A stretch of 64,000 bases of DNA, from assembly GCF_056746865.1 (NCBI RefSeq), contig NZ_CM163382.1, one strand, 5' to 3'. The position numbers and the translations under genes are program-made. Each line of letters opens with the position of its first letter. The stretch's first letter is position 1. Below the pieces are notes generated by a model. It had not been told where the DNA came from, did not search any database, and was given only the letters and a program-made list of their open reading frames with translations. Shown here one piece after another: positions 9,637 through 11,216 of this stretch.

Positions 9637-9867
9637 ATATGGATCATTGTGCTGGCGCTGTATCCCGACATCAGCCCGGAAATTTTTACGATTGATATCG
9701 GTTCAAGTGCAATTGGCTGCACGATCGTTACGGACTCGCTTTTCTGGCTGGTGAAGCAATATTGCGGCGCTACGCTCAATGAAACATTTAAATACTATAC
9801 GACAGCGACATTTATCGCTTCAGTCGTCGCTCTGGCGGGCACATTCCTGCTGTCATTTATCATCTAA
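9637..9867 (+). pseudogene. dsdX: 3' remnant of D-serine permease gene dsdX (final ~75 codons only)
   Basis: Frame open only from the stop at 9634-9636; hydrophobic C-terminal segment directly upstream of dsdA; no N-terminal part or dsdC present. Confidence 0.65.
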
Positions 9868-9884
9868 GCGCAAAGAGACGTACT

Positions 9885-11216
9885 ATGGAAAACGCTAAAA
9901 TGAATTCGCTCATCGCCCAGTATCCGTTGGTAAAGGATCTGGTTGCTCTTCAAGAAACCACCTGGTTTAATCCTGGCACGACCTCATTGGCTGAAGGTTT
10001 ACCTTATGTTGGCCTGACCGAACAGGATGTTCAGGACGCCCATGCGCGCTTATCCCGTTTTGCACCCTATCTGGCAAAAGCATTTCCTGAAACTGCTGCT
10101 ACTGGGGGGATTATTGAATCAGAACTGGTTGCCATTCCGGCTATGCAAAAACGGCTGGAAAAGGAATATCAACAACCGATCAGCGGGCAACTGCTACTGA
10201 AAAAAGATAGCCATTTGCCCATTTCCGGCTCCATAAAAGCACGCGGCGGGATTTATGAAGTCCTGGCACATGCAGAAAAACTGGCTCTGGAAGCGGGGTT
10301 GCTGACGCTTGAAGATGACTACAGCAAACTGCTTTCTCCGGAGTTTAAACAGTTCTTTAGCCAATACAGCATTGCTGTGGGCTCAACCGGAAATCTGGGG
10401 TTATCAATCGGCATTATGAGCGCCCGCATTGGCTTTAAGGTGACAGTACATATGTCTGCTGATGCCCGGGCATGGAAAAAAGCGAAACTGCGCAGCCATG
10501 GCGTTACGGTCGTGGAATATGAGCAAGATTATGGTGTTGCAGTCGAGGAAGGACGTAAAGCAGCGCAGTCTGACCCGAACTGTTTCTTTATTGATGACGA
10601 GAATTCCCGCACGTTGTTCCTTGGGTATTCCGTCGCAGGCCAGCGTCTTAAAGCGCAATTTGCCGAGCAAGGTCGTATCGTCGATGCTGATAACCCTCTG
10701 TTTGTCTATCTGCCGTGTGGTGTTGGCGGTGGTCCTGGTGGCGTCGCATTCGGACTTAAACTGGCGTTTGGCGATCATGTTCACTGCTTTTTTGCCGAAC
10801 CAACGCACTCCCCTTGTATGTTGTTAGGCGTCCATACTGGATTACACGATCAGATTTCTGTTCAGGATATTGGTATCGACAACCTTACCGCAGCGGATGG
10901 CCTTGCAGTTGGTCGCGCATCAGGCTTTGTCGGGCGGGCAATGGAGCGTCTACTGGATGGCTTCTATACCCTTAGCGATCAAACCATGTATGACATGCTT
11001 GGCTGGCTGGCGCAGGAAGAAGGCATTCGTCTTGAACCTTCGGCACTGGCGGGTATGGCCGGGCCTCAGCGCGTGTGCGCATCAGTAAGTTACCAACAGA
11101 TGCACGGTTTCAGCGCAGAACAACTGCGTAATGCCACTCATCTGGTGTGGGCGACGGGAGGTGGAATGGTGCCGGAAGAAGAGATGGAGCAATATCTGGC
11201 AAAAGGCCGTTCATAA
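9885..11216 (+). CDS. dsdA: D-serine dehydratase (PLP-dependent)
   Basis: 443-aa [22 protein letters not shown]..., PLP-lysine context SGSIKARGG. Confidence 0.9.

Follow-up and report, generated by a model that had tools for sequence, protein, structure and literature searches.

The region between argW and dsdA in the DNA analysed here very probably represents (with a probability of roughly 0.88) the classical csc-type allele, in which the csc genes have replaced dsdCX, dsdA is expressed at a low level and cannot be induced, and the cells are inhibited by D-serine. The DNA is a stretch of 64,000 nucleotides from contig NZ_CM163382.1 (RefSeq assembly GCF_056746865.1), referred to below as the window. 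The arrangement is already known and has been characterised experimentally; the window is an ordinary instance of a long-known polymorphism. Most likely, a recombination event exchanged dsdC, the dsdC–dsdX control region and codons 1–373 of dsdX for cscB–cscK–cscA–cscR. Judging from published strains, the loss of DsdC and of the dsdX promoter would leave dsdA transcribed at a low level only and no longer induced by D-serine. By the same analogy, the cells should fail to grow on D-serine, should be growth-inhibited by it, and should have gained a slow use of sucrose. Published strains also suggest that the silent dsdA could be reactivated if a deletion took out cscR and brought dsdA under the promoter of cscA or of z3622.

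Gene order, the exact junction, the absence of dsdC and the intact dsdA were observed directly, and the same junction was found in all sampled csc-type loci (9/9). The exchange of dsdCX for csc is a textbook example of a niche-linked metabolic trade-off, in which sucrose use is gained and D-serine detoxification is lost. The window adds one more instance of this swap, and nothing beyond. The persistence of an intact dsdA in roughly half of the surveyed complete genomes is a question that the literature has already posed, and it concerns more than the window alone.

Gene order and the dsdX remnant

The features of the region are collected in Table 1. The whole csc locus, including cscR, is intact, as judged from the open reading frames and from the RefSeq annotation of the near-identical locus of strain 118UI. 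Of the four csc genes, cscA alone shares the strand of dsdA; cscR, called 'sucrose operon repressor' in other records, is transcribed away from it. On alignment, the spacer that runs from the cscR start codon to the junction showed no homology to the K-12 dsd region. Beyond emrY, the order continues with emrK and evgAS.

Table 1. Features of the argW–dsdA region, window positions 4000–13000. L001 is the corresponding locus of strain 118UI.
Feature	Position	Strand	Basis and remarks
argW, tRNA-Arg(CCT)	4006–4080	+	ARAGORN; left border of the variable region
Short ORF with DUF4942 domain, between argW and cscB	4260–4442	+	RefSeq annotation of L001 (2961–3143), offset +1299
cscB, sucrose:H+ permease, intact, 415 aa	4522–5769	-	ORF list; annotated as oligosaccharide MFS transporter
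cscK, fructokinase, intact, 307 aa	5831–6754	-	ORF list; RefSeq name aminoimidazole riboside kinase
cscA, sucrose-6-phosphate hydrolase (invertase)	6970–8403	+	ORF 6961–8403; start taken from annotated L001 (5671–7104)
cscR, LacI-family repressor of the csc genes, 331 aa	8411–9406	-	L001 CDS 7112–8107, converted
csc-side spacer, cscR start codon to junction, 243 nt	9407–9649		Junction alignment
dsdX' stub, pseudogene fragment	9649–9867 (nucleotide homology from 9650)	+	tblastn and blastn against K-12; alignments; RefSeq pseudogene flag
dsdX–dsdA spacer, 17 nt, with Shine-Dalgarno-like AAGAG	9868–9884	+	Identical to K-12
dsdA, D-serine ammonia-lyase, intact, 443 aa	9885–11216	+	ORF list; 98.9% identity to K-12 DsdA
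emrY, conserved right-hand neighbour, convergent with dsdA as in K-12	11322–12860	-	ORFs; annotation

The left border deserves a brief comment. From argW rightwards, the locus of strain 118UI is 99.986% identical to the window over 14.4 kb. To the left of argW, window positions 1–4005 are not collinear with 118UI (L001 1–2705), where a tyrosine integrase and a hypothetical gene are found that are absent from the window; 118UI is therefore not the strain that yielded the window. argW has been named as a recombination and integration hotspot (PMC4366372), and the divergence fits such a hotspot with lineage-specific cargo. The short ORF that follows argW may be a remnant of an integrated or mobile element at the left border of the csc insertion. 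Further tRNA clusters lie elsewhere in the window: two tRNA-Ala(GGC) genes at 48083–48273 (- strand), and three tRNA-Val(TAC) genes together with one tRNA-Lys(TTT) gene at 50972–51369 (+ strand).

At the right-hand end of the insertion, what is left of dsdX corresponds to K-12 codons 374–445, i.e. 72 codons plus the stop codon out of 445, as found by tblastn, blastn and alignment against K-12. Homology to K-12 sets in at window position 9650, the second base of dsdX codon 374, and then continues at 97.5% nucleotide identity through dsdA to emrY. A preliminary description of this DNA had given the remnant as the last ~75 codons of dsdX, starting at 9637. The truncation stands; the extent is to be corrected to 72 codons from 9650, a trivial shift of about 3 codons, or 13 nt. 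In RefSeq, the stub is flagged as a pseudogene of DsdX, with the remark 'missing N-terminus'.

Between the junction and the dsdA start codon are 235 nt, and the junction falls on the same base in the window and in eight further csc-type loci. These were chosen across the range of identities, and one of them comes from an O157:H7 genome (L005). A 219-nt DsdX pseudogene is annotated in all eight, and dsdA is intact in each. Such a shared junction fits a single ancestral replacement that was later spread by homologous recombination. Three of the loci (L008, L009 and L010) are 12–13 nt shorter than the window, owing to an indel in the spacer between cscR and dsdX' that leaves the junction unaltered.

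The stub itself shows signs of change. Its first 56 nt (window 9655–9706) harbour five clustered substitutions that are private to the window, being absent from the 14 other loci compared; all five alter amino acids in the dsdX frame. In the 1326 nt of dsdA there is a single private site, which is synonymous (Fisher p = 4e-4). Few variable sites are also found in the last ~155 nt before the dsdA start codon, namely six among csc-type and five among dsdCXA-type loci. In this small sample, such a distribution is in keeping with decay of the stub alongside conservation of dsdA and perhaps of the sequence just upstream of it. For the five clustered changes, either relaxed constraint or one multi-base event could be the explanation.

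Integrity and expression of the orphan dsdA

The predicted DsdA is 98.9% identical to its K-12 counterpart over 442 aa, with five substitutions and one extra C-terminal Ser. SGSIKARGG, the motif surrounding the PLP-binding lysine, is found at residue 114 of both this protein and K-12 DsdA. The extra residue is due to a 3-nt insertion before the stop codon (window 11208–11216, GGCCGTTCATAA, compared with GGCCGTTAA in K-12), which extends the protein to 443 aa. The insertion is shared with 118UI; it was found in none of the eight other csc-type or the seven dsdCXA-type loci sampled. The 17 nt that separate dsdX from dsdA (GCGCAAAGAGACGTACT) are the same as in K-12 and contain AAGAG. The preliminary description was thus right that dsdA is intact and equipped with its own Shine-Dalgarno sequence, given the full-length reading frame of 443 aa and the K-12-identical spacer. 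Near-identity to the K-12 enzyme, together with the activity of the enterohaemorrhagic (EHEC) allele once it is transcribed, leads to the expectation that the DsdA encoded here is catalytically active.

In the K-12 operon, DsdC acts at the dsdX promoter, which is located in the dsdC–dsdX intergenic region. In the window, both dsdC and this control region are missing, and csc sequence has taken the place of all that would precede dsdX codon 374. The nearest promoter on the same strand is that of cscA, ~2.9 kb upstream of the dsdA start codon and with the convergent cscR in between. A scan for sigma-70 consensus sites gave none on either strand across 8300–11400, although weak promoters could escape a consensus scan of this kind. 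The preliminary description had proposed that dsdA might be driven from a promoter on the cscR side or by read-through. Since cscR is transcribed away from dsdA, its promoter, on the minus strand, cannot drive dsdA; of the two suggestions, read-through from cscA is the only route that remains.

Much of what can be said about expression comes from EHEC. Strains TUV93-0 and EDL933 do not grow on D-serine, and their growth in glucose minimal medium is inhibited by it (passages of PMC7486766; PMC4366372; PMC13012123). In the same sources, the authors attribute this phenotype to the csc insertion, which removes dsdC and truncates dsdX. In exchange, csc-type strains have gained slow utilisation of sucrose (passages of PMC7486766; PMC4366372; PMC11251922; PMC13012123), and reports that use of D-serine and csc-type use of sucrose exclude each other go back to 1979 (PMC11251922). 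The passages of PMC7486766 used here further describe GFP fusions joining the wild-type EHEC upstream region to dsdA, which gave low fluorescence. They also describe D-serine-tolerant EHEC mutants with deletions of 1.1 kb or 5.6 kb, in which cscR is lost in whole or in part and dsdA comes under the control of the cscA or the z3622 promoter. Expression of dsdA was raised 33-fold in the one variant that was profiled by RNA-seq, and both variants consumed D-serine. According to the same passages, tolerance is also obtained with a constructed deletion of cscR and is lost again when cscR is provided in trans; for this reversal the authors invoke an action of CscR on the cscA promoter, and report no direct CscR action on the dsdA-proximal region. 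In these experiments the EHEC dsdA allele was catalytically active as soon as it was transcribed. A 2026 paper likewise regards the EHEC dsdA allele as intact, yet not up-regulatable (PMC13012123).

The suggestion in the preliminary description that, without DsdC, the strain may be unable to use or detoxify D-serine is thus borne out by published work on strains with the csc-type arrangement, and its application to the window is by analogy, through the junction shared with the O157:H7 locus. As far as the passages of PMC7486766 go, the growth, sensitivity and expression experiments that had been proposed as checks have already been published for EHEC with the same allele. The strain from which the window is derived would be expected to behave like other csc-type strains, its phenotype being transferred from strains that carry the same allele.

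This relatively simple picture of a silent gene has one possible, if tentative, competitor. In this view, low-level expression of the orphan dsdA would proceed without DsdC, e.g. from a weak promoter in the retained 3' end of dsdX (its last ~150 nt) or by sucrose-dependent read-through from cscA. The gene might then be kept by selection for a housekeeping role, clearing endogenous D-serine or traces of it and lowering basal SOS stress. The dsdA reading frame is intact in 9/9 sampled csc-type loci, and its dN/dS (Nei–Gojobori) is 0.061 across these nine, compared with 0.041 across seven dsdCXA-type loci. Apparent constraint of this strength (0.06) fits poorly with a completely useless gene, and the scarcity of private sites in dsdA and of variable sites in the ~155 nt before it, described above, points in the same direction. 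So does the finding that deletion of dsdA in EHEC raises basal recA promoter activity (PMC13012123), which hints at some low-level dsdA function; 'silent' probably means low rather than zero expression. Against this stand the empty sigma-70 consensus scan and the observation that the same deletion left the D-serine response of the EHEC type III secretion system unchanged (PMC13012123). Moreover, in the distance matrix dsdA groups by lineage and not by locus type; the dsdA of one csc-type locus (L007) even equals that of K-12. The dN/dS comparison is therefore a weak test that says little about selection after the loss of dsdC, as substitutions from before and after the swap are inseparable. 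On this evidence, most dsdA polymorphism may predate the swap or may have been shuffled across it.

Among the sampled dsdCXA-type loci, a frameshift interrupts dsdA in one (L016, NZ_CP124372.1, whose genome has two dsdA places) and dsdX in another (L014, NZ_CM136166.1); inactivation of dsd genes thus also occurs without csc.

Unlikely, in our estimation, is the more specific idea that sucrose co-induces dsdA in wild-type csc-type strains, with transcription from the cscA promoter reading across the antisense strand of cscR into dsdX'–dsdA. The end of cscA (8403) and dsdA are on the same strand and ~1.5 kb apart, and the scan of the + strand from 8403 to ~9832 found no terminator-like site. The activation of dsdA by deletion of cscR, credited by its authors to the cscA promoter, and the renewed repression by cscR in trans (passages of PMC7486766) would also be in keeping with such read-through. 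However, a wild-type fragment that extends from the cscA promoter through dsdA gave only low GFP signals in the same work, and convergent transcription of cscR and the distance of ~1.5 kb would both attenuate read-through. The passages on sucrose in PMC7486766 make no mention of testing induction of dsdA by sucrose.

That dsdA is a decaying relic encoding an inactive enzyme is highly improbable: its substitutions relative to K-12, the additional Ser and the changing stub next door might be read in this way, but the full-length frame, the 98.9% identity with an intact PLP-lysine motif, the synonymous nature of the only private site and the activity of the equivalent EHEC allele once transcribed (passages of PMC7486766) all speak against it.

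dsdC and the distribution of the two locus types

No dsdC was found in the 64-kb window by tblastn with K-12 DsdC, in agreement with the earlier statement that none lies upstream of dsdA. The only hit, at 28% identity, was a LysR-type gene at 52235–52741 (- strand), ~43 kb away; at this level of identity it was rejected as a dsdC candidate and is considered a paralogue with no connection to the dsd system.

A survey of 5426 complete E. coli genomes found the dsdA region in 5399. Approximately half of the genomes surveyed (2660/5426) contain the csc–dsdX' junction region, counted as a match to at least 80% of window 8300–11400 (cscA'–cscR–junction–dsdX'–dsdA–emrY'). In the remaining matches to this segment, the match sets in precisely at the junction, and dsdX is full-length. 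Recurrence of the junction in 2660 genomes means that the arrangement is not a chance pattern. dsdC is found in 2734 of the 5426, and the csc-type and dsdC-type states are nearly mutually exclusive. Arithmetic on the place counts, which assumes one csc copy per genome, suggests that ~70 genomes may have both cscR and dsdC.

These exceptions bear on the possibility that DsdC is supplied in trans. The preliminary description had noted that a dsdC copy elsewhere in the genome would speak against its reading. A chimeric query was composed of window 8411–9649 (cscR plus junction) joined to K-12 dsdC. At 100% identity over cscR and the junction, 60 complete genomes were listed for this query, and each gave a single place, hence no dsdC-like DNA elsewhere in any of them (60/60). 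As dsdC alleles within E. coli are 95–100% identical to each other, megablast would have picked up any copy. Similarly, the 25 genomes listed with 100% identity over window 1–12000 gave a single place each, so that none has a second copy of dsdA or dsdX. A second dsdCXA locus, or a lone dsdC, that would render the present locus irrelevant or restore D-serine use is barely credible: some genomes do have two dsdC places (the maximum is 2) or two or three dsdA places, the csc-type BH100N having 2, and to these come the ~70 genomes just mentioned, but the single places in 60 and 25 identical genomes argue against it, and, even were DsdC present, the dsdX promoter on which it acts is missing from this locus.

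D-serine is abundant in urine; it is believed to restrict the access of csc-type strains to the urinary tract and to act as a repressor of virulence genes in EHEC. Among the matches listed, those most similar to the window come largely from human isolates. One genome with complete identity at cscR and the junction bears the label O15:H18 ST69, not EHEC. The near-identical strain 118UI was isolated from urine, so that absence of dsdCX is evidently no bar to isolation from this source. In a report from 2024, dsd/csc frequencies did not differ between commensal and uropathogenic isolates (PMC11251922); the prevalence of human isolates and the near-identical urine genome agree with this report.

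Comparison with known systems

The closest known counterpart is the replacement of dsdCX by csc in EDL933 (O157:H7), EC3132 and W, with the same order of argW, cscB, cscK, cscA, cscR, dsdX', dsdA and emrY. In that type and in the window alike, dsdC has been lost and dsdA is intact. This replacement was reportedly described by Alaeddinoglu and Charles in 1979, by Jahreis et al. in 2002 and by Moritz and Welch in 2006. It is also treated by Connolly et al. (2015) and O'Boyle et al. (2020). A direct comparison of the window with the O157:H7 locus (L005) showed an identical junction and 98.3% identity over 3.1 kb, the remaining differences being allelic only. The allelic details of the window are the five substitutions in the stub and the 3-nt insertion responsible for the additional C-terminal Ser of DsdA.

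The second point of reference is the dsdCXA locus of K-12 (L002) and uropathogenic strains (UPEC). From the last 72 codons of dsdX through the dsdX–dsdA spacer and dsdA, this locus and the window are orthologous, with a nucleotide identity of 97.5%, and the right-hand neighbours emrYK and evgAS are the same in K-12 and the window. In contrast, dsdC, the divergent dsdC/dsdX promoter region and dsdX codons 1–373 are missing from the window. In K-12, genes of the CPS-53 prophage are found between argW and dsdC; the window is devoid of them. Taken together, the window has every sequence-testable feature of the csc-type allele, namely cscBKAR between argW and dsdA, no dsdC, the O157:H7 junction and an intact dsdA, and lacks those of a DsdC-activated dsdXA operon, i.e. 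a divergent dsdC with its control region and a full-length dsdX.

Finally, the laboratory-evolved EHEC variants LCV2 and LCV10B, as described in the passages of O'Boyle et al. (2020) used here, started from the same csc-type locus. Those variants carry the 1.1-kb or 5.6-kb deletions of all or part of cscR, whereas cscR is intact in the window. With its csc locus and cscR both intact, the locus in the window is in the un-reactivated state.
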